Positions 2,305-14,356 of a stretch of DNA of 14,356 nucleotides are shown in pieces; the stretch's first letter is position 1, and each line of letters starts with the position of its first letter. The stretch lies in the IMG/VR virus record IMGVR_UViG_2526164619_000014; one strand, written 5' to 3'. The position numbers and the translations under genes are program-made. Below the pieces are notes generated by a model. It did not search any database. It was not told where the DNA came from and saw only the letters and a program-made list of their open reading frames with translations. The DNA comes from a virus. Taxonomy: Duplodnaviria > Heunggongvirae > Uroviricota > Caudoviricetes.

Positions 2305-3590
2305 ATGAGTACAGATATGGCCATTAATGTGCTTTCCCCCAAACAGATAGAAAACGCCAAGCCGAAGACCAATGATTACAAACTTACCGATGGAGGGAGT
2401 TTGTATCTACTGGTACGAAAGACTGGTGGAAAATACTGGCGTATGAATTATCGTTTTGATGGAAAACAAGTGACATTGGCATTAGGGGTCTACCCAGATG
2501 TCTCACTTGCAACAGCGCGGAAACGGCGTGATGAAGCCAGGCAACTACTAGCCGATGGTCGTGATCCTCGCGAAGCAAAGAAACCCAAAAAGGAAGACCC
2601 AATTTCCCCCACGTTCGAGAGTGTTGCCAGAGAGTGGCATAGTGGAACGATGGGGCATCCTGAGTGGAAAGAGATCACCCGTAAAAAATTCTCCGAGAAA
2701 TGGAAAACCACCTCTTTCCTGCCATCGGTTCAAAGCCTATCGATACGCTCAAAACCCGTGACTTGATGCCGATGCTGGTTGAGATGACTGAGAAAGGAAT
2801 TGGTGCCACAACGAGCCGTGTAAAAACCACTATGACGAGCATCTTCCGTTATGCCGTGCAACGTGGAATTGTCGATTACAACCCTGCCCACGATCTAAAA
2901 GGTGCAATTACGGCCCCCAAAGTACGACATCGCCCCGCACTACCTCTCGAACGTTTACCTGAACTGTTAGCGAAAACGAGAAGTTACACGGGAAGACCAT
3001 TGACTCGCCTAGCAGTTCTCTTTTCCCTGCACACTTTTGTGCGATCCAGCGAACTACGACATGCCAGATGGGAGGAGATCGACATTGAAAATGGGCTATG
3101 GACGATACCAGGACAACGTGAAGAGATCGCAGGGGTTAAATTCTCAGATCGGGGTGCAAAGATGGGGGCTGCTCATTATGTCCCGCTATCTAGTCAGGCT
3201 ATCGGGGTACTGGAGGATATAAGGAAAATCAGTGGTGAATATCTGCTGGTTTTTCCCGGTGACAGCAACCCATATAAACCGATGAGCGAAAACACAGTTA
3301 ATAAAGCACTGCGAACGATGGGTTACGACACTCAAACTGATGTTTGCTTGCATGGGTTCAGGGCGATGGCCTGCTCTGCACTGACCGAATCAGGACTCTG
3401 GTCACGCGATGCAGTTGAACGGCAGATGAGTCACCAAGAAAGAAACGAAGTGCGGGCAGCATATGTGCATCTTGCGCAGCACATGCAGGAACGCCGCAGA
3501 ATGATGCAATGGTGGTCTAATTATCTGGAACTAAATAAGGACGAATTCCATGCTCCTTATGACTTATCAGGTATTAACATTATCAATTAA
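2305..3590 (+). pseudogene. int: P4-type tyrosine integrase, reading frame broken in an A6 run (2683-2688); N-terminal part 2305..2766, catalytic part 2700..3590
   Basis: N-terminal ORF carries the P4-integrase-type N-terminal domain (..YKLTDGGSLYLLVRKTGGKYWRMNYRFDGKQ..). Second ORF carries the tyrosine-recombinase catalytic domain (..HGFRAMACS.. and C-terminal ..AAYVH..). Adding one A to the run at 2683-2688 gives a continuous ..RKKILREMENHLFPAIG.. reading. Start is ATG 2305 or 2317; the 2257 extension of the ORF track is unlikely. Lies directly 3' of the tRNA, as expected for the integrase of a tRNA-inserted element. Confidence 0.85.
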
Positions 3591-4502: not shown

Positions 4503-4604
4503 ACTGAAACAATCTACAGGTAGAGTTGATTACACTACCTTCACAGCATTTTGATATCCCCATAGTATCTGCCGTGTTCATTACATAATACGGCAGGTAA
4601 TTTC

Positions 4605-4820
4605 ATGACATTAAAAACTTATCCTATCACTGGACATGCCCGCCCACGAGCTACTGCTGACTTTTTGCAAATAAGTACGGTTACTCTCTGGCGCTGGGAA
4701 AAGAACAATCCTGAATTTCCCAAATCTATACGCATTTCAAAACGGGTATCTGTTTACGATGCACAAGAAATTAGGCAGTGGGTTAAAGCTCAATCAGCAG
4801 GATTGGAGGAAGTAGTGTAA
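4605..4820 (+). CDS. alpA: AlpA-family phage transcriptional regulator / excisionase-like HTH protein
   Basis: 71-aa ORF; the segment ..FLQISTVTLWRWEKNNPEFPKSIRISKRVSVYDAQEIRQWV.. matches the AlpA/Vis-type winged-HTH pattern as recalled. Shine-Dalgarno AGGT 6 nt upstream of the ATG. Confidence 0.8.
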   Translation: MTLKTYPITGHARPRATADFLQISTVTLWRWEKNNPEFPKSIRISKRVSVYDAQEIRQWVKAQSAGLEEVV

Positions 4821-4838
4821 TGACAATATTAACAAAGC

Positions 4839-4860
4839 TGGGGAGAAAAAAGCCTCCCCA
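4839..4860. terminator. bidirectional hairpin between the convergent alpA and RHH genes
   Basis: Stem TGGGGAG (4839-4845), loop AAAAAAGC, stem CTCCCCA (4854-4860). Lies between the alpA stop (4820) and the stop of the minus-strand ORF (4870). T-tracts on either side are only moderate. Confidence 0.4.
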
Positions 4861-4869
4861 ACGTATTAA

Positions 4870-5064
4870 TCAATTCTTTGGTTCTAAACCTCGGCTTTGT
4901 AACTCTTTGCGTAGAATGCGCTTGATCCAAGCCGCTAGCGATTCATCGCCATCCTGCTGTTGTGCTTGTTCCATCAGTTCACGCAGTTCAGGGTCAAGTC
5001 GGAACTGGAATGGCGGATTCCCACGTCTTTCATTTTTGTGTGTTGACACGTCAATTACACCCAT
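4870..5064 (-). CDS. ribbon-helix-helix (Arc/CopG-like) DNA-binding protein, putative repressor
   Basis: 64-aa ORF; ..PPFQFRLDPELRELMEQAQQQ..ESLAAWIKRILRKEL.. has the beta-strand / helix / helix layout of RHH regulators. Perfect palindromes lie immediately upstream of its start. No convincing Shine-Dalgarno, so confidence is moderate. Confidence 0.5.
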   Translation of the reverse strand: MGVIDVSTHKNERRGNPPFQFRLDPELRELMEQAQQQDGDESLAAWIKRILRKELQSRGLEPKN

Positions 5065-5098
5065 TGTAATGTATTTATGTGTAATGACACATTACACA
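5042..5098 (+). promoter_or_regulatory. rightward sigma70-like promoter (TTGACA-N16-TGTAAT) overlapped by operator-like inverted repeats
   Basis: TTGACA at 5043-5048 and TGTAAT at 5065-5070. Perfect 9-3-9 palindrome TGTGTAATG-ACA-CATTACACA at 5078-5098, with related half-sites ATTACAC (5054-5060) and TGTAATG (5065-5071). Lies between the divergent RHH and Icd-like genes. Confidence 0.4.
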
Positions 5099-5180
5099 CA
5101 GAAAAACAAAATAGCAACGCCCCGGAGTGTTTGCAGCAGCACCGAGGCGTCTGACCAGCACGTTATATGAGGTAACGAAG

Positions 5181-5357
5181 ATGGCTAAACAGAAGTGTAC
5201 CTGGTTATTTGCGGCGATCAACCGCAGTCAACGCAATGCCCGTCCTGTGATGTTAAGGATCACCGCAGATAACGAACGATCAGCGCGGCGCAGACTTGCC
5301 CCGGACTATGTACTGAGCTTTGCCGGGCGCATTCCCTGCGGAGGTGAACATGCGTAA
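5181..5357 (+). CDS. Icd-like (P4 host cell division inhibitor-like) small protein
   Basis: Start ATG 5181 with GAGG 8 nt upstream. The segment ..WLFAAINRSQRNARPVMLRITADNERSARRRLAPDYVLSFAGRIP.. matches the Icd-like pattern recalled from P4-like prophages. The 5127 start in the ORF track is a less likely upstream extension. Confidence 0.6.
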   Translation: MAKQKCTWLFAAINRSQRNARPVMLRITADNERSARRRLAPDYVLSFAGRIPCGGEHA

Positions 5358-5709
5358 TTATCCGCACCCCGGCGAACGCTGGCAGCATGAACGTGGCTGG
5401 ACGGTCACGATTATCCGATTAATAGAAGCCTCGCCCTCTGTGGCGCTGGTTAATCCTGAATTCAGCTGTGAAGTGCTGATACGTCATGACAGCGACAACA
5501 AGCTTTCTTCCTGCCCTCTGGCATGGTTTGAACAGCGGTATACGCGCCTGTTTGATGTACCGCTCTTGAAGCCTGCACCAGCTCCTGCTGGCGGTAGTGG
5601 TTCCGGCCCGCTGACACTGCATCCGTCTGTGCTATTTATCCGCTGGCGGGAGCGTAGCATACGGCGTTCTGCTGAGCCTGACGACGGTCACTATTCAAAG
5701 TTTCTCTGA
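5350..5709 (+). CDS. hypothetical protein (about 120 aa)
   Basis: Start ATG 5350 preceded by GGAGGTG; 8-bp overlap with the Icd-like gene suggests coupling. No recognisable motif. Confidence 0.5.
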   Translation: MRNYPHPGERWQHERGWTVTIIRLIEASPSVALVNPEFSCEVLIRHDSDNKLSSCPLAWFEQRYTRLFDVPLLKPAPAPAGGSGSGPLTLHPSVLFIRWRERSIRRSAEPDDGHYSKFL

Positions 5710-5850
5710 CAAAATACCGCTGAAAACGGAGTAATCCACGATGAATATTTCAAACGGGCACAACGGTGCTCAGGGCCACACTTTGCCTGAAAAACACAAT
5801 ACCGGTGCTGAGGTGTACTGGCAATAGCGGACACTACCATTTGTTCTTTT

Positions 5851-6713
5851 TTAAGCAGCCATCTGATGATATTTTTCCCTGAAGGCTGCCGGGGAGATAT
5901 TTCCCAGACGAGAGTGACGACGCTGACGATTGTAGAAAATCTCAATGTATTCCCGTATTACTGAGATGGCTTCATCCCGGTTATTAAAACGATAGTGGCT
6001 CAGGCTCTCATTTTTCAGCGTTCCCCAGAAGCTTTCCATCGGAGCGTTGTCGTAACAGTTACCTTTACGCGACATTGATGTTTTCAGACCAGACTGCTCC
6101 TGTATGACCCGGTAATCGTATGCGCAGTACTGTGAACCTCGATCAGAGTGGTGGATTAGCCCGGCAGGTGGGCGCTGGCTCCTGAGCGCCATAAACAGGG
6201 CTTTACCTGTCAGCTCTTTTGTCATGCGCTCTCCCATGGCGTAGCCGACAATTTCGCACGTATAAACATCTTTAATGCCAGCGAGGTACAACCATCCCTC
6301 CTGTGTGGCAACATACGTCAGGTCCGCCACCCAGACCTGATTTGGTGCTGTAGGAGCGAACGTCTGGTTCAGCAGATTTGGCGCAACTGGCAGATTGTGG
6401 TTCGGGTTCGTAGTCGCTCTGAACTTGCGTTTCTGCTTACAGCGTAGCCTTAGCTCCTTACGAAGACGTGCCAGTCGGTCACGACCAACGATGATGCCAT
6501 TCTCTGCCAGCTCCGTCTGGAGCCGCCGGGTTCCATATGTTTCGAGTGCGGATATGTGCCACCTTAATCTCCAGTTTTAGCCGCCCATCACTTTGTTTTC
6601 TGTCTGAGGGTTCATGCTGTACCCAGTTGTAATAACCGCTCCTGGATACACCAAATACCTGACACATCGCTTCAATGGGAAATTGTTGTCGCCATTGTTC
6701 GATTAACGCGTAT
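5851..6713 (-). pseudogene. IS3-family transposase OrfB (DDE catalytic domain); reached from orfA by the usual -1 frameshift but carrying an additional frame break near 6540-6545
   Basis: N-terminal part in the -1 frame (..AEKYALIEQWRQQFPIEAMCQVFGVSRSGYYNWV..IRTR). Catalytic part 5851..6330 (..HHSDRGSQY.., ..GNCYDNAPMESFWGTLKNE..) is in a different frame. Minus-strand read CGCACTCGAAACATATGG is consistent with one extra base or two missing bases. Confidence 0.7.
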
Positions 6714-7005
6714 TTTTCAGCGACTCCTGTGCAAAATACGCTGTTGCTTTTTTTAATATATCTCGCTCAAGGCGAGCTTCATTTAACGCCTTACGCAGTT
6801 GCAGAATTTCAGATTCCAGTTCAGCCACCGTGCGGGAACCAGGAGTACCGAGCCCTTTTCTGGCGGCGGTAACCCATTGTCCTAAAGTGCCTTCAGGAAG
6901 GGATAATCGGGAAGCGCCTTCACTGATCGAAAGTTGATTTTCAAGAACCGTTCTGACAGCTTCGGCTTTGAACTCTTTAGAGTAACGTTGGTTTTTTCTG
7001 CTCAT
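6703..7005 (-). CDS. IS3-family transposase OrfA (HTH / leucine-zipper part)
   Basis: 100-aa ORF MSRKNQRYSKEFKAEAVRTV.. ending ..KKATAYFAQESLKNTR, the typical IS3-family OrfA C-terminus. Overlaps the orfB frame in -1 at the A-rich motif GAAAAAT (about 6707-6713). Confidence 0.9.
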   Translation of the reverse strand: MSRKNQRYSKEFKAEAVRTVLENQLSISEGASRLSLPEGTLGQWVTAARKGLGTPGSRTVAELESEILQLRKALNEARLERDILKKATAYFAQESLKNTR

Positions 7006-7285
7006 TATTAGCTCCTTCTGATGCCATTCTATTTCAGGAAGGAGTGTCCGTTAAACTCAGGCTACCTCATGCTTTTGCCTATGGGTTGTCAGAGGACAGT
7101 TTCGGAAAGCTGACCCGCGCAAGAAATGCCTGCGACATGCTCCAGCTTCTCTTTTCTGAATACCCGTCTCAGGCCGGAGCACTGGACGCAGGCTGTGCGC
7201 CTGGTGTCGCCGCGCTGATGGAGTACCTGCTGGCAGATTTGACGGATATTGCACACAGCTGCGCACTGATTGAAGGAGGTGCCAG

Positions 7286-7669
7286 ATGAACCAGCCGCAG
7301 GTTTCCATTTTCCCGGTAGAAATGACCACCGCGCTTTACCGGCGGGCTATTGCTTCAGCATGGCGGCAGAAAATGCTGAACGAAACTGGCAGTGATCAGT
7401 ATGGTCCGCACAGCCTGACGGTGGAGCGTATTGAAATGGCCATTGCGCTGCATATCGAGTGCGTACTGATTAACGAGTACGGCGAAGTGCAGGGCGCCGC
7501 TGCCGCGCTGGCACTGCTGACTGACATGCTGGAGCCGTCACTGCTGACCGCGCCGCCGGTACTGACCGCGCGCGGCTGTGAAGTGATGGCGGAGATGTAC
7601 CGCACGCTTCCGGCGGCATTTGATGACTTCTGCAGTACCGGTGTGACGTTGTATGAGGGGGAAGTATGA
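7286..7669 (+). CDS. hypothetical protein (127 aa), second gene of the primase operon
   Basis: ATGA overlaps at both ends (7286-7289 and 7666-7669) couple it to the flanking genes. No recognisable motif. Confidence 0.6.
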   Translation: MNQPQVSIFPVEMTTALYRRAIASAWRQKMLNETGSDQYGPHSLTVERIEMAIALHIECVLINEYGEVQGAAAALALLTDMLEPSLLTAPPVLTARGCEVMAEMYRTLPAAFDDFCSTGVTLYEGEV

Positions 7670-10338
7670 CAATACAGACGGTTACGCAGGTTTCAGCCGC
7701 CGCACGGGGGAAATGGCCCGTTATTCTGCAGATGCTGCGTATTGATGTACCTGAAAACGGCAGGCACGGTCCCTGCCCGAAATGTGGGGGCAAGGATCGT
7801 TTTCGCCTTGATGACCTTGACGGGCGCGGGACGTGGATCTGCAGCCAGTGTGGCAATGGTGACGGTCTGGATCTGGTTAAGCTCGTAACCGGTTACAGCG
7901 TCAGAAAGGCTGCGCAGGAGGTGGCGCAGGTGCTTAATGTGCCGGATATGCAGGAACTGCCTGTTAAGCCTGCCAGACAAAAAGCCCCTAAACGCGACAT
8001 GGGTCTTACCGTGGCGGCGCTGATGAAAGAGAGCCACACGGGAGAAAGCGCCTATCTGACAGGAAAAGGGTTCGCCGGATACCCGGCCTCTCTGACCGGA
8101 AGCGTACAGCATATCAGCGGTAAGGATTTTCCTGCCGGTTCCCTGCTGTTACCACTCACGACCAACACCGGAGCCGTGACCGGTGCACAGCTTATCGCCC
8201 CGACGGGTGAAAAAAGCATACTGCCCGGCAGCACGATGAAAGGCGCGTTTGTGTCGCTCAGCCCGTTACCGTCTGAACCACCGATACAGGTGGTGATTAC
8301 CGAAGGTTACGCTACGGCGCTGACGGTAAGCCAGCTCACTGCCGGATGCGTAGTGGCTGCCATATCTGCGGGCAACCTGCCCAATGTGGCGCAGTCGCTG
8401 CGGGCACGCTGGCCTGAGGTAAAAATTATCATCGCCGGTGATAACGATTTTCAGGACGGGGGTGAGAATCCCGGCAGAGCCTTTGCTGAACGGGCGGCAA
8501 AAGCTGTTGGCGGCTGGATGACGCTGCCACCAGGAGAGATTAAGGCTGACTGGAATGACTTTCATCGGGAGCACGGTATTACCCGTGCCCGTGAAGCCTT
8601 TCGCAACGGTCTGGTACTCTGCGGGGAAAGCCGCACGCAACTGCCGCACGGGTTCCGTCTTACCCAGGAATATCTCTGGTATGAAAAGCAGGTACAGCGC
8701 AACGGTGAGACGGAGATCCAGAACGTCAAAATATGCAGCCCGCTGCGCGTGACGGCAATCACCTGCGATGCCGATGGCGGTAACTTCGGACGACTGCTGG
8801 AATGGGAAGATACGTGGGGTGAGTGTCGCCGCTGGGCGATGCCGATGGAAATGCTGAGCGGCAGTGGTGAGGAACTGCGCCGGGTACTGCTGGTTAACGG
8901 GCTGTCTTATATCAGCACCACCGGTGAGGCACGCGCACGCCTGATGGAATATATCTCACTGTGTAAACCGGAACGCCGCGTGACCTGCATCAGTCGTACT
9001 GGCTGGCATGGTCAGGTTTACGTCCTGCAGGATGAGGTCAGCGGTGAAGGTGCAGAGGGTGTCATTCTCCAGACCACTTCCGTGCAGGGGCGTGATTTCC
9101 GCGTGTCGGGCACAACAGAGGAATGGCGGGAGCATGTATCCCGCTACTGTACCGGCAACTCCCGCGTGGCATTTGCTGTCAGCCTGGCCTTTGCTGCACC
9201 ACTGTTACGGCTGGTTGGTATGGACGGCGGCGGCTACCACCTCAAAGGGGAATCGACAGACGGTAAGACCACCACCATGAAAGCAGCAACCTCCGTCTGC
9301 GGCGGGCCTGACTACTGGCAGACATGGCGGGCCACCGGCAACGCGCTGGAGGGATGCGCCAGCCGCCGCAACGATGCCGCCATGATGCTTGATGAGATCC
9401 GGGAAGTTGACGGACGCGAGGCAGGCAATATCGCCTACATGCTGGCAAACGGTCAGGGCAAGGGCCGTGCCGGTACGGACGGTGAGCTGCGTACCCGTAA
9501 GCAGTGGCGCCTGTTGTTCTTTTCAACTGGCGAATTGTCTCTGACCGAACATGCGGCAAAGGCCGGTGAGCGTACTTTTGCCGGGATGGAAGTCAGGATG
9601 ATCCAGATCCCCAGCGATTCCGGGAAGTTTGGCGTTTTTGAGGAGCTGCACGGCTTCGACAGCGGCAAGGCTCTGGCAGAGCATCTTGAATGGGCCACGT
9701 CCTGCTACTACGGTTCGCCGTTCCGGGAGTGGCTGAAAGCACTGACCGCTGATCTTAACGGACTAACGGCACAGGCAAAATCGCTGATGAAGGAATATGC
9801 TGCCGCCCTGACTCCGAAAGATGCAGGCAATCAGGTGGGCCGGGCTGTGAACCGCTTTGCACTGGTGGCGATGGCAGGTGAACTGGCAACCCGTCTGGGT
9901 ATCACCGGCTGGCCTGAGGGTGAAGCACTGCGGGCAACCCGCGTCTGCCTGAACGCATGGCTGAAAGATCGCGGGCACACCGCCAATCAGGAAGATATCG
10001 CCGCACTGGAGCAGGTTCGCAGTTTCTTTACCGCGAATCAGTACAGCCGCTTTGCAGACTGGTATGACGAGCGCAACCGCCCCGGCAATATGGTGGGCTG
10101 GCGAAGGGTGGAGAAAGGCAGTACCGCGCAGGGCACGGAAGCTGTCACTACGTTCTATGTCATGCCGTCCGGCTGGAAAGAAATCTGCAGGGGATTTGAC
10201 CCGCGCAAGGTGGCGCGTCTGTGCGCAGATCGTGGATACCTGCTGCCCTCCACTGATGGCAAACTCCAGACAACCATTCGCCCGCCAGAGATGAATCCCC
10301 GCAGGCTCTATGTCTTCAACAGCGAGGTGCCGGGTTAA
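7666..10338 (+). CDS. P4 alpha-like primase/helicase (zinc-binding N-terminus, TOPRIM primase, D5-type P-loop NTPase)
   Basis: 890-aa ORF. N-terminal CPKCGGKDRFRLDD..WICSQCG zinc-ribbon typical of P4-family primases. Walker A GESTDGKT at about residue 525. GAGGGGG Shine-Dalgarno before ATG 7666. Confidence 0.9.
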   Translation: MTIQTVTQVSAAARGKWPVILQMLRIDVPENGRHGPCPKCGGKDRFRLDDLDGRGTWICSQCGNGDGLDLVKLVTGYSVRKAAQEVAQVLNVPDMQELPVKPARQKAPKRDMGLTVAALMKESHTGESAYLTGKGFAGYPASLTGSVQHISGKDFPAGSLLLPLTTNTGAVTGAQLIAPTGEKSILPGSTMKGAFVSLSPLPSEPPIQVVITEGYATALTVSQLTAGCVVAAISAGNLPNVAQSLRARWPEVKIIIAGDNDFQDGGENPGRAFAERAAKAVGGWMTLPPGEIKADWNDFHREHGITRAREAFRNGLVLCGESRTQLPHGFRLTQEYLWYEKQVQRNGETEIQNVKICSPLRVTAITCDADGGNFGRLLEWEDTWGECRRWAMPMEMLSGSGEELRRVLLVNGLSYISTTGEARARLMEYISLCKPERRVTCISRTGWHGQVYVLQDEVSGEGAEGVILQTTSVQGRDFRVSGTTEEWREHVSRYCTGNSRVAFAVSLAFAAPLLRLVGMDGGGYHLKGESTDGKTTTMKAATSVCGGPDYWQTWRATGNALEGCASRRNDAAMMLDEIREVDGREAGNIAYMLANGQGKGRAGTDGELRTRKQWRLLFFSTGELSLTEHAAKAGERTFAGMEVRMIQIPSDSGKFGVFEELHGFDSGKALAEHLEWATSCYYGSPFREWLKALTADLNGLTAQAKSLMKEYAAALTPKDAGNQVGRAVNRFALVAMAGELATRLGITGWPEGEALRATRVCLNAWLKDRGHTANQEDIAALEQVRSFFTANQYSRFADWYDERNRPGNMVGWRRVEKGSTAQGTEAVTTFYVMPSGWKEICRGFDPRKVARLCADRGYLLPSTDGKLQTTIRPPEMNPRRLYVFNSEVPG

Positions 10339-10370
10339 GGCTTTGCGTGAGTCTTATTTATTAAGGGTAA

Positions 10371-10560
10371 CAGGTGAAACAGGTGGAACAACCGTATTTT
10401 ACAGGGCTGAACCTGTTCCACCTTCTGAAATAGTGAGGTGGAACAGATGTAACGCCAGCCAATCCGCTGTTCCACCTTGTTACCCGCGATGTTCCACCGG
10501 TGCAGTGTATATAAATGCCTTATAAAACAAAGCTGTAACACATGTTTCACCTGTTCCACC
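10371..10560. repeat. iteron array (putative replication origin / crr-like region): six copies of TGTTCCACC in both orientations plus two GTTTCACC variants and an AT-rich box
   Basis: TGTTCCACC at 10414-10422, 10468-10476, 10490-10498, 10552-10560; GGTGGAACA at 10382-10390 and 10437-10445; variants at 10373-10380 (complement orientation) and 10544-10551. AT-rich stretch 10505-10540. Lies directly 3' of the primase gene. Confidence 0.6.
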
Positions 10561-10648
10561 GCATCAGGGACATAAAGCAGACTGAAACAGAGGGCATTTT
10601 TATCTGGCTGGCTTTCATAGCCACGTCTGAATAACCGCAAGCGCCCGT

Positions 10649-10704
10649 TGTGCCAGCCACCACACACTGAGCACCGATAGTGTGCTTGTGTCAGCCACGA
10701 CACA
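10649..10704 (+). promoter_or_regulatory. candidate late promoter region for the sid-like operon with two TGT-N12-ACA dyads (Ogr/Delta-type activator sites)
   Basis: TGT 10649-10651 / ACA 10664-10666 and TGT 10687-10689 / ACA 10702-10704, 35-90 bp upstream of ATG 10739. The dyad is short enough to occur by chance, so this is tentative. Confidence 0.35.
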
Positions 10705-10738
10705 ATTGACGTAACGAACCAACCCGACAGGAGAAGTC

Positions 10739-11482
10739 ATGAACAATACCGCAGTAAATAACAACCTTTCCACTTTTCCGGCTGTAACGCAGCGGGCACT
10801 GGAAACCATGAACACAGCCAGAAACGCATGGCTTGAAGCACGTCGTCAGCAGAAAGCGGCAGCGGATAATATTGCGACAATCCGCCAGCGTCGCGCTGAA
10901 ATGGAAGCCACGACGAACACACTGAATGAGGAGTGGCGCACGCTGTTTCGTGAAAGTCAGGGCGTGGTCTCAAAGGAAATGAAAAAACTGCGCACGGAAA
11001 TTGCGCTGGGACGAGAAACGCTTGAGGATTTTGATGAGCTGCTGGCGGCTCAGGAAAGCGAAAATGCACTTTTGCCGCAGAAAGCTGCAGAATTAGCCGG
11101 AAAGTATATCCACGCGCATAACATTCTTGTGGATATTCGCGCAAAACAAATCTGGGAGGATTTTATGCAGTCGCATGGAAAAGCGCTTATTCAGACGCTG
11201 AGCCTGCTTAAATCCACAATGGGCCGGGAAGCCAGTGCCGTTGTGGGTGTGGTGAATTCAGTTAATGACCCGGACACAGTGCTGAAAGACTTTATTCATA
11301 AACATATCACCAGACCGGCTCTGGCTAACGATGCGATGCCTGAGCAGGACCCGGTGTTTAAACTGGCGGGAGTTGCCCCGGATTATGCGGCGCGTCTGGA
11401 TTTCAGTAATCAACTCTCTCCGGCAGCTATGCATAAAATTAAGGTTCGTCAGGAACTCGCTGAGAAGGAGAAAGCAGTATGA
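10739..11482 (+). CDS. sid: Sid-like protein (P4 capsid size-determination / external scaffold homologue)
   Basis: 247-aa alpha-helical, charged protein; size and position (first gene of the late operon, followed by Psu-like and Ogr/Delta genes) fit P4 Sid. N-terminus resembles the Psu-like protein downstream. Assignment by context and recalled similarity only. Confidence 0.5.
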   Translation: MNNTAVNNNLSTFPAVTQRALETMNTARNAWLEARRQQKAAADNIATIRQRRAEMEATTNTLNEEWRTLFRESQGVVSKEMKKLRTEIALGRETLEDFDELLAAQESENALLPQKAAELAGKYIHAHNILVDIRAKQIWEDFMQSHGKALIQTLSLLKSTMGREASAVVGVVNSVNDPDTVLKDFIHKHITRPALANDAMPEQDPVFKLAGVAPDYAARLDFSNQLSPAAMHKIKVRQELAEKEKAV

Positions 11483-12030
11483 CGGCCCGAGGCACGCCTG
11501 ACCAGGCACTTACCAGTTTTCGGAATGCCCGTATTCTGTGGGCCGGACATAGTGAGAGCCGAAAAGCCGTTGAACAACAGATAACATCTCTCCTCGCTGC
11601 CACAGAAAAACCAGCAGATTATGCCCGACAGCTCGAATTACTGCGGGAACGTCTGGATGTGCTGAAATGGCAAATTAACTGTGCTGCGCGCGAATGCATT
11701 TACGCGCAGCATTTACTGATGGAGGCCTGCACAGAAGCCGCTCTCAGCAATTTTATGCAGGCGAATGGGGCAGCCCTGACATCTGCACTGGCTCCGTTCC
11801 TGAAGGGGCGCGGAGGGGTTGACGTTGCGTCCCGTATATTACGCAGTGCTCTGGTTCGCCAGCTGGCAATAACACCGCCTGAAATTGCCGGGGATTATCG
11901 TGAGATCCTGGATGAATCCGGTTTGATACCTGACCCCGGGATGATTCGTGATTGCCAGGACTCTTACACCCCGGCACAACATCTGCATTTTCAGCAACGC
12001 CTGAATGACATTAACGATATACAGGAGTGA
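11479..12030 (+). CDS. psu: Psu-like protein (P4 polarity suppression protein homologue)
   Basis: 183-aa ORF, ATGA-coupled to the preceding gene. Contains ..KWQINCAA.., ..FMQANGAALTSALAP.., ..YTPAQHL.. which match motifs I recall from P4 Psu (not verified by search). Confidence 0.6.
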   Translation: MTARGTPDQALTSFRNARILWAGHSESRKAVEQQITSLLAATEKPADYARQLELLRERLDVLKWQINCAARECIYAQHLLMEACTEAALSNFMQANGAALTSALAPFLKGRGGVDVASRILRSALVRQLAITPPEIAGDYREILDESGLIPDPGMIRDCQDSYTPAQHLHFQQRLNDINDIQE

Positions 12031-12308
12031 TTTTAAGGGCACTTAAATGTCCGGAATGCGGTACAGTTGCACACGCCAGAACAGCAGCCTATGAAGCTCC
12101 GTCAGTTAAACGCTCGTGGTATCAGTGCCAGAATCTGGAATGTTCCTGCACATTTACGGCACTGGAGAGTGTGGATAAGATAATCATGAAACCCCGGCGC
12201 AATGAACAGGAACCAGACAAATCACACCCCCCGGTAAAACAACAGCAAACGCTCAATCGCTATGGCTCCGCGTCAAAACTGTCAAGCCGTCAGCAGATTC
12301 CTGTCTGA
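12027..12308 (+). CDS. Ogr/Delta-family zinc-finger late-gene transcriptional activator
   Basis: ..CPECGTVAHART..YQCQNLECSCTFTALESV..IMKP.. is the Ogr/Delta signature (C-x2-C ... C-x4-C). Apparent GTG start overlapping the psu-like stop (GTGA). Confidence 0.85.
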   Translation: MILRALKCPECGTVAHARTAAYEAPSVKRSWYQCQNLECSCTFTALESVDKIIMKPRRNEQEPDKSHPPVKQQQTLNRYGSASKLSSRQQIPV

Positions 12309-12328
12309 TTAGAAAAAACGCCCACGTA

Positions 12329-12353
12329 ATCCCGGTCGAGTACCGGGATTTTT
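12329..12353 (+). terminator. intrinsic terminator of the late operon
   Basis: Perfect 8-bp stem ATCCCGGT / ACCGGGAT with 5-nt loop, followed by TTTT; 20 bp after the Ogr/Delta stop codon. Confidence 0.7.
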
Positions 12354-12380
12354 AACACCTTTTCCCTGGCTGGCCTGAGA

Positions 12381-12495
12381 GCGCATGAGTGCATGTCTAT
12401 AGCGCATGAAAACGCATGAACCTTATGCACCATTTTTGACGAGAAAGCCCTTGTGTGGTGGCTTCTGAGACGATTTATGAGGTGCATGAAAACCA
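12381..12495. repeat. cluster of GCATGA(A) direct repeats in the intergenic region after the late operon
   Basis: GCGCATGA 12381-12388, GTGCATG 12389-12395, GCGCATGAAAAC 12402-12413, GCATGAA 12414-12420, GTGCATGAAAACC 12483-12495. Function unknown. Confidence 0.4.
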
Positions 12496-12791
12496 GTCTG
12501 TTAAGCGAAGCGGGCAGGCGTGCGGGGCTGTTCGCATCAACATAAAAATAACGGGCTGATATAGTTATAAAATCAAATGAACTCTTTTAGTACGACATGG
12601 GTATGTGCGCCAGTAGCAACGTCAGCCCCCAAGCTTTCTATTGTTCTTTTCTGTTGTACCATCAATACGTACCGATTAGCTCCTAAGCATCAATATCAGT
12701 TTGAACGTATTGCTTTGAACTAATTTTTAGATGATTTTTTTCATTAAAAATTATAATGTTGTAGATAAAAAGAGAATCTTATAGAGGCGTT

Positions 12792-13480
12792 ATGTCAAAT
12801 AAAGTTGATGTTTTTTGAGCCGAGTTAGCCATGTATCACAGTTTGTATTGGTGGCATTTGCTATTTTTGGATATTTTTATACAGTAAGACCAATTTACCA
12901 AAAGGAACTTTTATCAGAAGAAATTGCAAAAAAAGAAGTTGAATTAAATAAATTAAAAACTGCAATGGAAAACTCCCAAAAATTTATAGAGAATAATAAA
13001 ATCTTACGAAAAGAATTGGAGGGAAGCATTGCCAAACTTGATTTACAATACAAAGAATCAGAAGAAAAATTAAATTCAATAAATTCTGAACTAAGAAAAA
13101 CTTTAAATGAACTAAATAAACAAAAGACCATTGCCAAAAGAGCGGTCAATGCAAACAACAAGAATCTTGAATCTGTTTTCTGGGAGAATTTTTCGGGGCT
13201 AGTTGGAGTAGTTTATATTTCTAAGAGCACAGATTTTGTGAACAATACACTGGGTGACGCCAAAACAGCCTATAATACTCCTAGTAATTTATATATATCT
13301 CCTTATGATGCAATTAATGAAGCATTAAAAAATGGCAATCATAACTTTATCTCAAGTTCAGAAAATGTCCCTGAAAATATCCGCAACAAAATTCTAGCAA
13401 AGATCCGTCGCGCTATTGAAAAAAATAAGATTTCATTAACAAAAAACCTATCGGTTTTGATGAAAAAATTAATAGCCTGA
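12792..13480 (+). CDS. cargo protein A: membrane-anchored coiled-coil protein of unknown function (about 229 aa if read from ATG 12792 through a one-base frame break in the T6 run 12811-12816; the ORF track gives TTG 12815..13480)
   Basis: AGAGG Shine-Dalgarno then ATG 12792 encodes MSNKVDVF and stops at TGA 12816-12818; the long ORF continues in the -1 frame from 12815. The joined N-terminus MSNKVDVFLSRVSH.. aligns with the in-frame N-terminus of the downstream paralogue. One hydrophobic helix (FVLVAFAIFGYFYTV), then a K/E-rich coiled-coil-like region. Strongly AT-rich. Confidence 0.6.
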
Positions 13481-13921
13481 TAAAAACTATAGAGTCAACT
13501 AAGTTACGCAAAAATGAAAACGAAATAATGAAAAATAACACTGCAGAAAGAGAACTATCATCTTATATTTTCCTGATAAATGGTCAATCAAGAATCCGCG
13601 CCATGGATTTCTTAAAAGACATTCAACATTTAGACTAATATTGGATATCTTATAATGAATACTAATACTAAATTTGATTTATGGTTGATTAGAGTAAGTT
13701 ACATTGCCCAAGTTGGATTGTTTTTTTGACAACCTTTACAATATTTTACACAGTAATTCCGATATACCAAAATGCAAATCTGCAGGAATCAATAGCAAAA
13801 AAGAAATCGAATATAAACAATTACAAGACAAAGAAAAACTCTATATTTAAAGTTAAGAAAGGAATATTCAAGAAAATATGTTGTTGATGCAATCTCCCAA
13901 TGTTCTCCAACAGAAATACTT

Positions 13922-14356
13922 ATGCGTCAACCATCTGAAGATGACAGTAAAAAATCACATGATGTAAGAATGAAGGAATTAAAAACATTTTTAAACAAAG
14001 ATATAACCAGTTGCTTTGAAAAAACTTTTTATAGCAACCCTTACATTAAGGAATTAAGAGACACTGATCAACAAAATATTCTTCTTAAAATTAAAAATTT
14101 ATCCCCCACTATAACTAAACTACATGAAAAATATAAAGCAGAATTTGATGACGATAGCAAGTTATTGAATACTGGAAAAGAAAAATCGACAAGATTAAAA
14201 GAGGTGGAAGATTATTTAATAGGAATAGGAGGTTACACAGAAAACAGCAAAAAGGATTTTGAAAACTCATACATAGAATCTGGAGCATATGACTTGGTTG
14301 TAAGGTATGGTTTTGAAGTCAACGATCTATTTTCCAAAACCATCAGAGACAATTAA
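13922..14356 (+). CDS. cargo protein B, C-terminal 144 aa as an intact ORF; the full paralogous gene probably starts at ATG 13655 and is interrupted by three one-base frame breaks (T run 13721-13727, A run 13797-13802, A run 13834-13838)
   Basis: Reading 13655..14356 with one base added at each of the three runs gives MNTNTKFDLWLIRVSYIAQVGLFFLTTFTIFYTVIPIYQNANLQESIAKKEIEYKQLQDKEKTLYLKLRKEY.. which aligns with cargo protein A over about 70 residues. The C-terminal half is unrelated to protein A. Stop codon is the last three bases of the window. Confidence 0.5.
   Translation: MRQPSEDDSKKSHDVRMKELKTFLNKDITSCFEKTFYSNPYIKELRDTDQQNILLKIKNLSPTITKLHEKYKAEFDDDSKLLNTGKEKSTRLKEVEDYLIGIGGYTENSKKDFENSYIESGAYDLVVRYGFEVNDLFSKTIRDN

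Follow-up and report, generated by a model that had tools for sequence, protein, structure and literature searches.

The window, the whole 14,356-nt stretch of DNA that was analysed, contains a copy of IS600 within a conserved 94-aa gene of a P4-like satellite prophage. The explanation that best accounts for the region as a whole, and that is very probably correct, is an IS600 insertion into the 94-aa gene, with likely Rho-dependent polarity and a replication-impaired satellite as the result. The initial annotation had described an IS3-family insertion with a TGC duplication. This description is borne out by a 99.5% identity to IS600 and by the single TGC found in empty sites. The features of the insertion are as follows.

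5741-5808, plus strand: 5' fragment of the 94-aa gene, codons 1-22 and 2 nt, identical to the WP_001027154.1 loci
5806-5808, no strand: left TGC copy of the 3-bp target-site duplication, a single TGC in empty-site alleles
5809-7069, minus strand: IS600 (IS3 family), 1261 bp, IRR at 5809 and IRL at 7069, with 99.5% full-length identity to annotated copies
5851-6760, minus strand: IS600 orfB, HTH_21 and rve DDE domain, broken by the CG deletion at 6544/6545
6703-7005, minus strand: IS600 orfA, 100 aa, intact, with a HTH_Tnp_1 match
6747-6754, minus strand: A7G slippery run in the orfA/orfB overlap, annotated as 'programmed frameshift' in the reference copy
7070-7072, no strand: right TGC copy of the 3-bp target-site duplication, read from the sequence
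7073-7289, plus strand: 3' fragment of the 94-aa gene, codons 23-94 and stop, containing the whole predicted folded part

The 1261-bp element at window 5809-7069 starts with TGAGGT and ends with ACCTCA. In a megablast search of 5,426 complete E. coli genomes, this element has full-length matches at 99.3-99.5% to features annotated as 'IS3-like element IS600 family transposase'. The annotated IS600 copies of E. coli/EIEC and of the Shigella pINV plasmids share the ends, orfA, the A7G site, the rve-containing orfB and the 3-bp duplication with the window copy. The reference copy on plasmid pCFSAN029787_01 has identical ends and is 1264 bp long. The window copy is unlike the annotated copies in its length of 1261 bp and, relative to the pCFSAN029787_01 copy, in three substitutions, a 2-bp CG deletion in orfB between 6544 and 6545, and one A fewer in the homopolymer past the orfB stop (5851). 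When the two ends of the element are compared, 24 of 50 positions match, mostly within the first 27 nt, and the ends form imperfect TG...CA inverted repeats. Some matches overran the element; an IS end longer by 15-19 nt was considered and rejected, the overrun being patchy flank similarity instead.

Owing to the CG deletion, the DDE domain is out of frame with the N-terminal part of orfB. The part of orfB downstream of the deletion matches HTH_21 and rve. Because orfB is split in this way, the window copy as sequenced yields no full OrfAB transposase. The deletion is absent from more than 5,000 IS600 places in E. coli genomes and from 1,441 IS600 places on plasmids, Shigella pINV included, and may be a sequencing error. 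Judged by its similarity and reading frames, the window copy is a member of the IS600 family by descent and is non-autonomous as sequenced.

The letters across the two junctions are ...ACCGG TGC / TGAGGTGTACTGGCAATAGCGGACAC ... GTCCGTTAAACTCAGGCTACCTCA / TGC TTTTGCC.... When 5741-5808 and 7073-7289 are rejoined, they give 285 nt with no internal stop, which is 94 codons and a stop. The uninterrupted gene is annotated in E. coli as WP_001027154.1, a 94-aa hypothetical protein. The original frame can thus be rebuilt across the insertion, as the initial annotation had proposed. Its '95-aa ORF' is continuous as described, but the length is 94 aa, since 95 counts the stop.

The locus was compared with IS-free genomes using a rejoined query of 1000 bp, with 500 bp from each side and the IS and one TGC removed. 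Five complete E. coli chromosomes, each with a single TGC, match the query at 100% identity. The comparison with IS-free satellites, which had been suggested as a check, therefore recovers the uninterrupted gene, at 94 aa, in these five genomes. The query is matched over 80% or more of its length by 330 genomes. Among the 332 complete E. coli genomes that bear the locus, these 330 match the 1-kb query in one place, which indicates that kb-sized insertions at the locus are rare. None of the 330 genomes has an IS-free allele that differs at 5806-5808/7073 or that carries two TGC copies. The chance of a 3-bp match alone is 1/64, so the match by itself has little weight; the duplication is proven because the empty site carries one TGC. 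Since the flanks are contiguous elsewhere with one TGC, recombination between IS copies is excluded and the 3-bp duplication is confirmed. A second IS600 copy that was examined is flanked by GTA/GTA, which is likewise a 3-bp duplication. On the evidence of the junctions and empty sites, the event is a simple IS600 transposition into a rebuildable ORF.

None of the 5,426 complete E. coli genomes contains the left junction. The right one recurs in several read sets. In GCA_026022055.1 (S. flexneri), an 8.6-kb short-read contig begins inside IS600, carries the right junction and encodes HCR5812051.1. This contig is equal to window 6627-14356, apart from six single-base deletions in the window. 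In contigs from ERR6004833 (common to four samples) and SRR066119, the first letters are the final 29-30 nt of IRL, followed by the same right junction. At least three independent read sets, one of them labelled Shigella flexneri, therefore contain the identical right junction. Database proteins identical to the window's yfdC and primase products also carry Shigella labels. Because the right junction recurs in several read sets and the left junction is missing from the 5,426 genomes, the insertion is real and lineage-specific. It is fixed in one lineage, probably one of S. flexneri. The initial annotation had called the insertion recent. This applies in a relative sense only, given a junction that is common to several read sets and absent from the complete E. 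coli genomes.

Compared with E. coli Z1323HEC0108, the island has 10 substitutions and seven single-base deletions. The seven deletions are all in A/T runs (2682, 12745, 12810, 13440, 13720, 13796 and 13833). With the IS deletion at 5851, the homopolymer deletions in the window number eight. Six of them are within reach of the short-read contig and are absent from it, which is the signature of homopolymer sequencing error. The integrase frameshift at 2682 is probably an artefact.

The window begins with mlaA, yfdC and tRNA-Arg (2058-2129), followed by the island. The order of the island is integrase, 293-aa gene, AlpA, Icd-like gene, 119-aa gene, 94-aa gene, DUF5375 gene, primase, Sid-like gene, Psu, Delta and cargo. 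The genes nearest to the interrupted gene are as follows.

5181-5357, plus strand: Icd-like gene, upstream of and co-directional with the interrupted gene
5350-5709, plus strand: 119-aa gene, overlapping the Icd-like gene
7286-7669, plus strand: DUF5375 gene, P4 ORF106 homologue, with an ATG that overlaps the stop of the interrupted gene (ATGA 7286-7289)
7666-10338, plus strand: primase-helicase, 890 aa, intact, with Zn ribbon, Toprim and DUF927, and an ATGA overlap (7666-7669) with the DUF5375 gene

Integrase domains, AlpA (PF05930) and Ogr_Delta (PF04606) are found in the island. Psu (PF07455) is matched twice, by the 247-aa Sid-like protein and by the 183-aa Psu. The primase matches Zn_Ribbon_Prim, Toprim_3 and DUF927. 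The P4-like components integrase, AlpA, Sid, Psu and Delta are thus co-localised. The cargo is AT-rich, with a GC content of about 30% at 13-14 kb. PADLOC and Pfam return no matches for the genes of this cargo or for the ORFs of 293 and 116 aa. An Rfam scan of the window recovers the tRNA alone, with no P4 CI-type RNA at the gathering threshold. By gene content and position, the host element is a P4-like satellite prophage at tRNA-Arg, adjoining yfdC.

The satellite shares gene order and strand with the left operon of P4 (X51522), which is icd, epsilon, ORF151, ORF106 and alpha, with the replication gene last in both. The Icd-like gene has 54% identity to the P4 icd region. The DUF5375 protein has 40% identity (E 1e-15) to the product of P4 ORF106, which we take to be cnr; both are phrog_5991, and the DUF5375 gene lies directly upstream of the primase. 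The primase has 38% identity to P4 alpha, in the N-terminal 320 aa only. The 119-aa protein is faintly similar to P4 ORF151 (E 0.006), and the 94-aa gene has no P4 counterpart. Among the window genes scanned, there is no epsilon by PF25738 (P4 epsilon's own Pfam match), by PF10554 or by BLASTP similarity. PF03288 is not among the Pfam matches of the satellite primase.

In a published survey, the profiles PF10554 (epsilon) and PF03288 (alpha) are used to define P4-likes (PMC8628076). Unlike the PF03288 alpha of that definition, the satellite primase has a DUF927 helicase part instead. Between epsilon and alpha, P4-likes often carry cnr and a small unknown protein that is absent from P4, and the gene family at this position includes P4's cnr (PMC8628076). 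The commonest P4-like variant, 'Type C', is without recognisable epsilon and alpha (PMC8628076). Because no epsilon is recognised and PF03288 is missing, the gene content of the satellite fits a resemblance to these 'Type C' variants.

The 94-aa family has members with 50-97% identity across Escherichia, Salmonella, Klebsiella, Enterobacter, Citrobacter, Raoultella, Serratia, Erwinia and Pantoea, and in these genera they are always unnamed. The protein is phrog_14861. It has no match in NCBIfam and none in 50,697 phage records searched by tblastn. P4 epsilon, which is similar in size and position, was considered as the identity of the interrupted gene and rejected: there is no BLASTP similarity, the two are assigned to phrog_14861 and phrog_10016, respectively, and there is no Pfam match. 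In the AlphaFold2 model of the native protein (mean pLDDT 71), residues 1-22 are disordered and the remainder contains a two-helix hairpin, with helices at 30-52 and 65-92. Foldseek searches of this model against PDB and BFVD return nothing below E = 0.4. Another E. coli has this gene interrupted near nt 150-155 by an IS21-family element with IstA/IstB genes. The database also contains several forms of the protein that are truncated or fused.

In the window, the frame of the 5' fragment continues into the IS as far as TAG 5825-5827, 19 nt inside the element, which gives a 28-aa product. The 3' fragment is part of a longer ORF that begins within the IS.

7044-7289, plus strand: chimeric 81-codon ORF starting (M/V)SVKLRLPH, with its GTG start and first 26 nt inside IRL

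The GTG at 7044 sits in IRL, with AGGAAGGA directly upstream. The IS contributes codons 1-8, codon 9 straddles the junction, and codon 10 onward is the native frame from residue 23. The initial annotation had recognised the ORF starting MSVKLRLPH as a chimera that initiates in the IS, in agreement with the 26 nt of IS600 that precede the native frame. The chimeric 81-aa protein is deposited as HCR5812051.1, 'hypothetical protein [Shigella flexneri]'. If made, it would keep the whole folded part of the 94-aa protein, according to the model. The default reading of the sequence is that the chimera is an ORF-calling by-product.

Among the ORFs that run in one direction here, the interrupted gene is the third, and it is the first of three ATGA-coupled genes. 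The initial annotation had placed it as the first gene of the primase operon. This is correct for the coupled genes, but the interrupted gene also follows the Icd-like and 119-aa genes, and the gap between the 119-aa gene and the interrupted gene is 31 nt on the same strand. Plus-strand promoter-like sites occur only at 4540-4568 (before alpA) and 5084-5112 (before the Icd-like gene). Given the short gap and the position of these sites further upstream, the transcription unit probably starts upstream of the interrupted gene.

On the plus strand, each of the three frames of the IS contains 13-20 stops. The stretch at 6199-6340 is C-rich and G-poor, with C at 28-33% versus G at 18-19%. Intrinsic-terminator-like sites on this strand of the IS are weak. 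No plus-strand promoter is found in the IS at 9/12 or better with a 16-18 nt spacer. A relaxed plus-strand scan of the last 370 nt of the IS finds only two 9/12 matches, both with 19-nt spacers. The IS end towards the primase is IRL, where the inward transposase promoter TTAACG-17-TAGAAT runs from 7054 to 7026 on the minus strand. The initial annotation had allowed for an outward promoter supplied by the IS. This caveat is weakened because it is IRL, with its inward promoter, that faces the primase. An outward -35 TTGCCA (5824-5819), of a kind typical of IS3-family right ends, lies in the right end and points left, away from the primase. It meets TATTGT in the left flank at 17 nt. With IRL facing the primase and no convincing outward promoter, IS-driven primase expression is unlikely on the basis of these scans. 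The Cnr-like gene and the primase gene are each preceded by a Shine-Dalgarno sequence, such as GGAGG 7 nt before the ATG at 7286, which would still allow translation of any read-through RNA. The downstream satellite genes are all intact, which fits a young insertion and is also compatible with continued function.

Untranslated C-rich RNA is the classical situation for Rho-dependent polarity, and the classical polar IS insertions are those of IS1/IS2 in gal and lac. The satellite is similar to those cases in having an IS in an upstream gene of a tight operon, oriented so that no outward promoter is directed at the downstream genes. For this satellite, polarity is a prediction. Psu is a known Rho antagonist, and it is a matter of speculation that the satellite's own Psu could relieve polarity late in the cycle.

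In the favoured mechanism, IS600 transposed into codon 22/23 of the conserved 94-aa gene, with the 3-bp duplication that is usual for the IS3 family, and the product of the gene is cut to 28 aa. Some 1.2 kb of antisense IS RNA, almost all of it untranslated, now lies between the upstream promoter or promoters and the Cnr-like and primase genes. Rho-dependent polarity would most likely reduce or abolish expression of the replication genes, and the predicted outcome is a replication-impaired satellite with its other genes intact. The 81-codon ORF is an incidental in-frame fusion. As sequenced, the IS copy would be movable only with transposase from other IS600 copies.

The IS could instead be non-polar. 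In this case, read-through or a weak promoter in the left end of the IS would serve the Cnr-like and primase genes, the AGGAAGGA-GTG chimera would be translated, coupling would be restored and the satellite would be functional. Residues 23-94 remain in frame in the chimera, the 22 residues that it lacks are those disordered in the AlphaFold model, and a purine-rich run is located right before the GTG. The downstream genes are intact and have their own SD sequences, and the plus strand of the IS has no strong intrinsic terminator. However, the spacing from AGGA to GTG is only 0-4 nt, the plus strand of the IS has no promoter match at the standard threshold, and the IRL transposase promoter fires in the opposite direction. 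The roughly 1.2 kb of untranslated RNA, with C-rich stretches at 6199-6340, is also a typical Rho substrate. A non-polar insertion is therefore considered unlikely. Placement of the IS by assembly error or by recombination between two IS600 copies, rather than by transposition, is extremely improbable. The window does have signs of error-prone sequencing, but this origin is effectively refuted: 330 E. coli genomes have the two flanks joined without a break, the duplication is perfect, and at least three independent read sets share the right junction.

A further possibility is that inactivation was selected, such that the satellite was tamed and locked in place with its cargo kept, and that the same gene is hit by IS repeatedly. 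The independent IS21-family insertion at about nt 150-155 of the gene and the several truncated or fused protein versions in the database are in line with such a history. Against it, kb-sized insertions are rare (330 of the 332 genomes have a one-place match), and one hit is expected by chance, as Shigella IS hit genes widely (PMC7373316). Selected inactivation is accordingly regarded as quite improbable, and the sequences compared give no sign of a hotspot or of selection at the 94-aa gene. Equally doubtful is a broader proposal of either functional rewiring or selection to immobilise satellites. The rewiring would involve IS600 at the boundary between tail and helix, a ribosome-binding site and GTG supplied by the IS, retained coupling and read-through licensed by Psu.

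IS600 belongs to the five IS that have expanded in every Shigella species, and it is a major gene inactivator (Hawkey et al. 2020, PMC7373316). Shigella genomes contain hundreds of IS copies, which have struck genes widely (PMC7373316). The present case is similar to the IS-made Shigella pseudogenes described there in that IS600 inactivates a gene and in that Shigella flexneri labels are found. The difference is in the target, here a gene of a satellite prophage and there a chromosomal metabolic gene (PMC7373316).

The insertion is an ordinary IS600 event of the known type that is behind much Shigella pseudogene formation. The 81-aa 'hypothetical protein' at 7044-7289 is an IS/gene chimera, for which the appropriate annotation is a disrupted gene. 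In satellite counts or mobilisation predictions, the satellite is best scored as probably replication-impaired. The uninterrupted 94-aa gene represents a conserved, uncharacterised family beside the Cnr-like gene in this P4-like class. The IS expansion of Shigella erodes satellite prophages too, besides chromosomal genes.

The satellite (window 7286-10338 and the whole island) carries a P4 ORF106 homologue together with a primase-helicase of the DUF927 type, and it contains no recognisable epsilon. It is therefore closer to the 'Type C' P4-like variants than to P4 proper. Upstream of the icd-like gene, a putative plus-strand ORF that has no database match overlaps a putative gene on the minus strand. 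The features discussed here and below are as follows.

2682, 5851, 12745, 12810, 13440, 13720, 13796 and 13833: single-base deletions (eight) relative to close relatives
4820-5170, plus strand: putative 116-aa ORF
4870-5064, minus strand: putative 64-aa gene, annotated by RefSeq in relatives
4862-4837, minus strand: terminator-like hairpin
5796-5824, minus strand: hybrid promoter-like site, by consensus match only (9/12)
12815-14356: AT-rich cargo (GC approximately 30%), 3' of delta

All of the single-base deletions identified by comparison with close relatives are located in A/T homopolymers. An independent short-read contig contains none of the six that fall within its span. The eight homopolymer deletions look like sequencing errors. 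The satellite integrase is apparently frameshifted by the deletion at window 2682, which leaves ORFs at 2257-2766 and 2700-3590. A different type of deletion is present in orfB of IS600 (minus strand, window 6544/6545), where the loss of CG changes CTCGCGAA to CTCGAA and frameshifts the transposase. This deletion is absent from all other IS600 copies searched (5,426 E. coli genomes and 72,556 plasmids) and is either a true mutation or a sequencing error.

The hybrid promoter-like site is made up of a -35 sequence (TTGCCA) in the right end of IS600 and a -10 sequence (TATTGT) in the flank, separated by a 17-nt gap. It is directed towards the interrupted gene's 5' fragment, the 119-aa gene and the icd-like gene, in antisense orientation to them. 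The 20 nt before the IS600 right end (window 5790-5808) are similar to the sequence flanking another, unrelated copy of IS600, in E. coli NIID080884 (L008 1500-1520; GAAAAA..CACAA..GGTG). This likeness could be due to chance or to target preference.

The 94-aa gene is also interrupted at approximately nt 150-155 by an IS21-family element that encodes a 511-aa IstA-like protein and a 251-aa IstB (L007 6001-8884, a Logan SRR6072401 contig). The host is a different E. coli with a related satellite, and this insertion arose independently of the IS600 insertion.

Approximately 900 nt past the window end, the start of a second Arm-DNA-binding integrase follows the satellite (L005 8528-8640). This arrangement suggests that islands are integrated in tandem at tRNA-Arg. 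Within the satellite, the cargo genes encode 282-aa and 234-aa proteins, neither of which has a match in Pfam or PADLOC. Intact versions are present in a relative (L004 11530-13099). The position of the cargo has been linked to anti-phage hotspots in P4-like satellites (PMC8628076, PMC9122126), and the cargo may therefore be an undescribed defence system.
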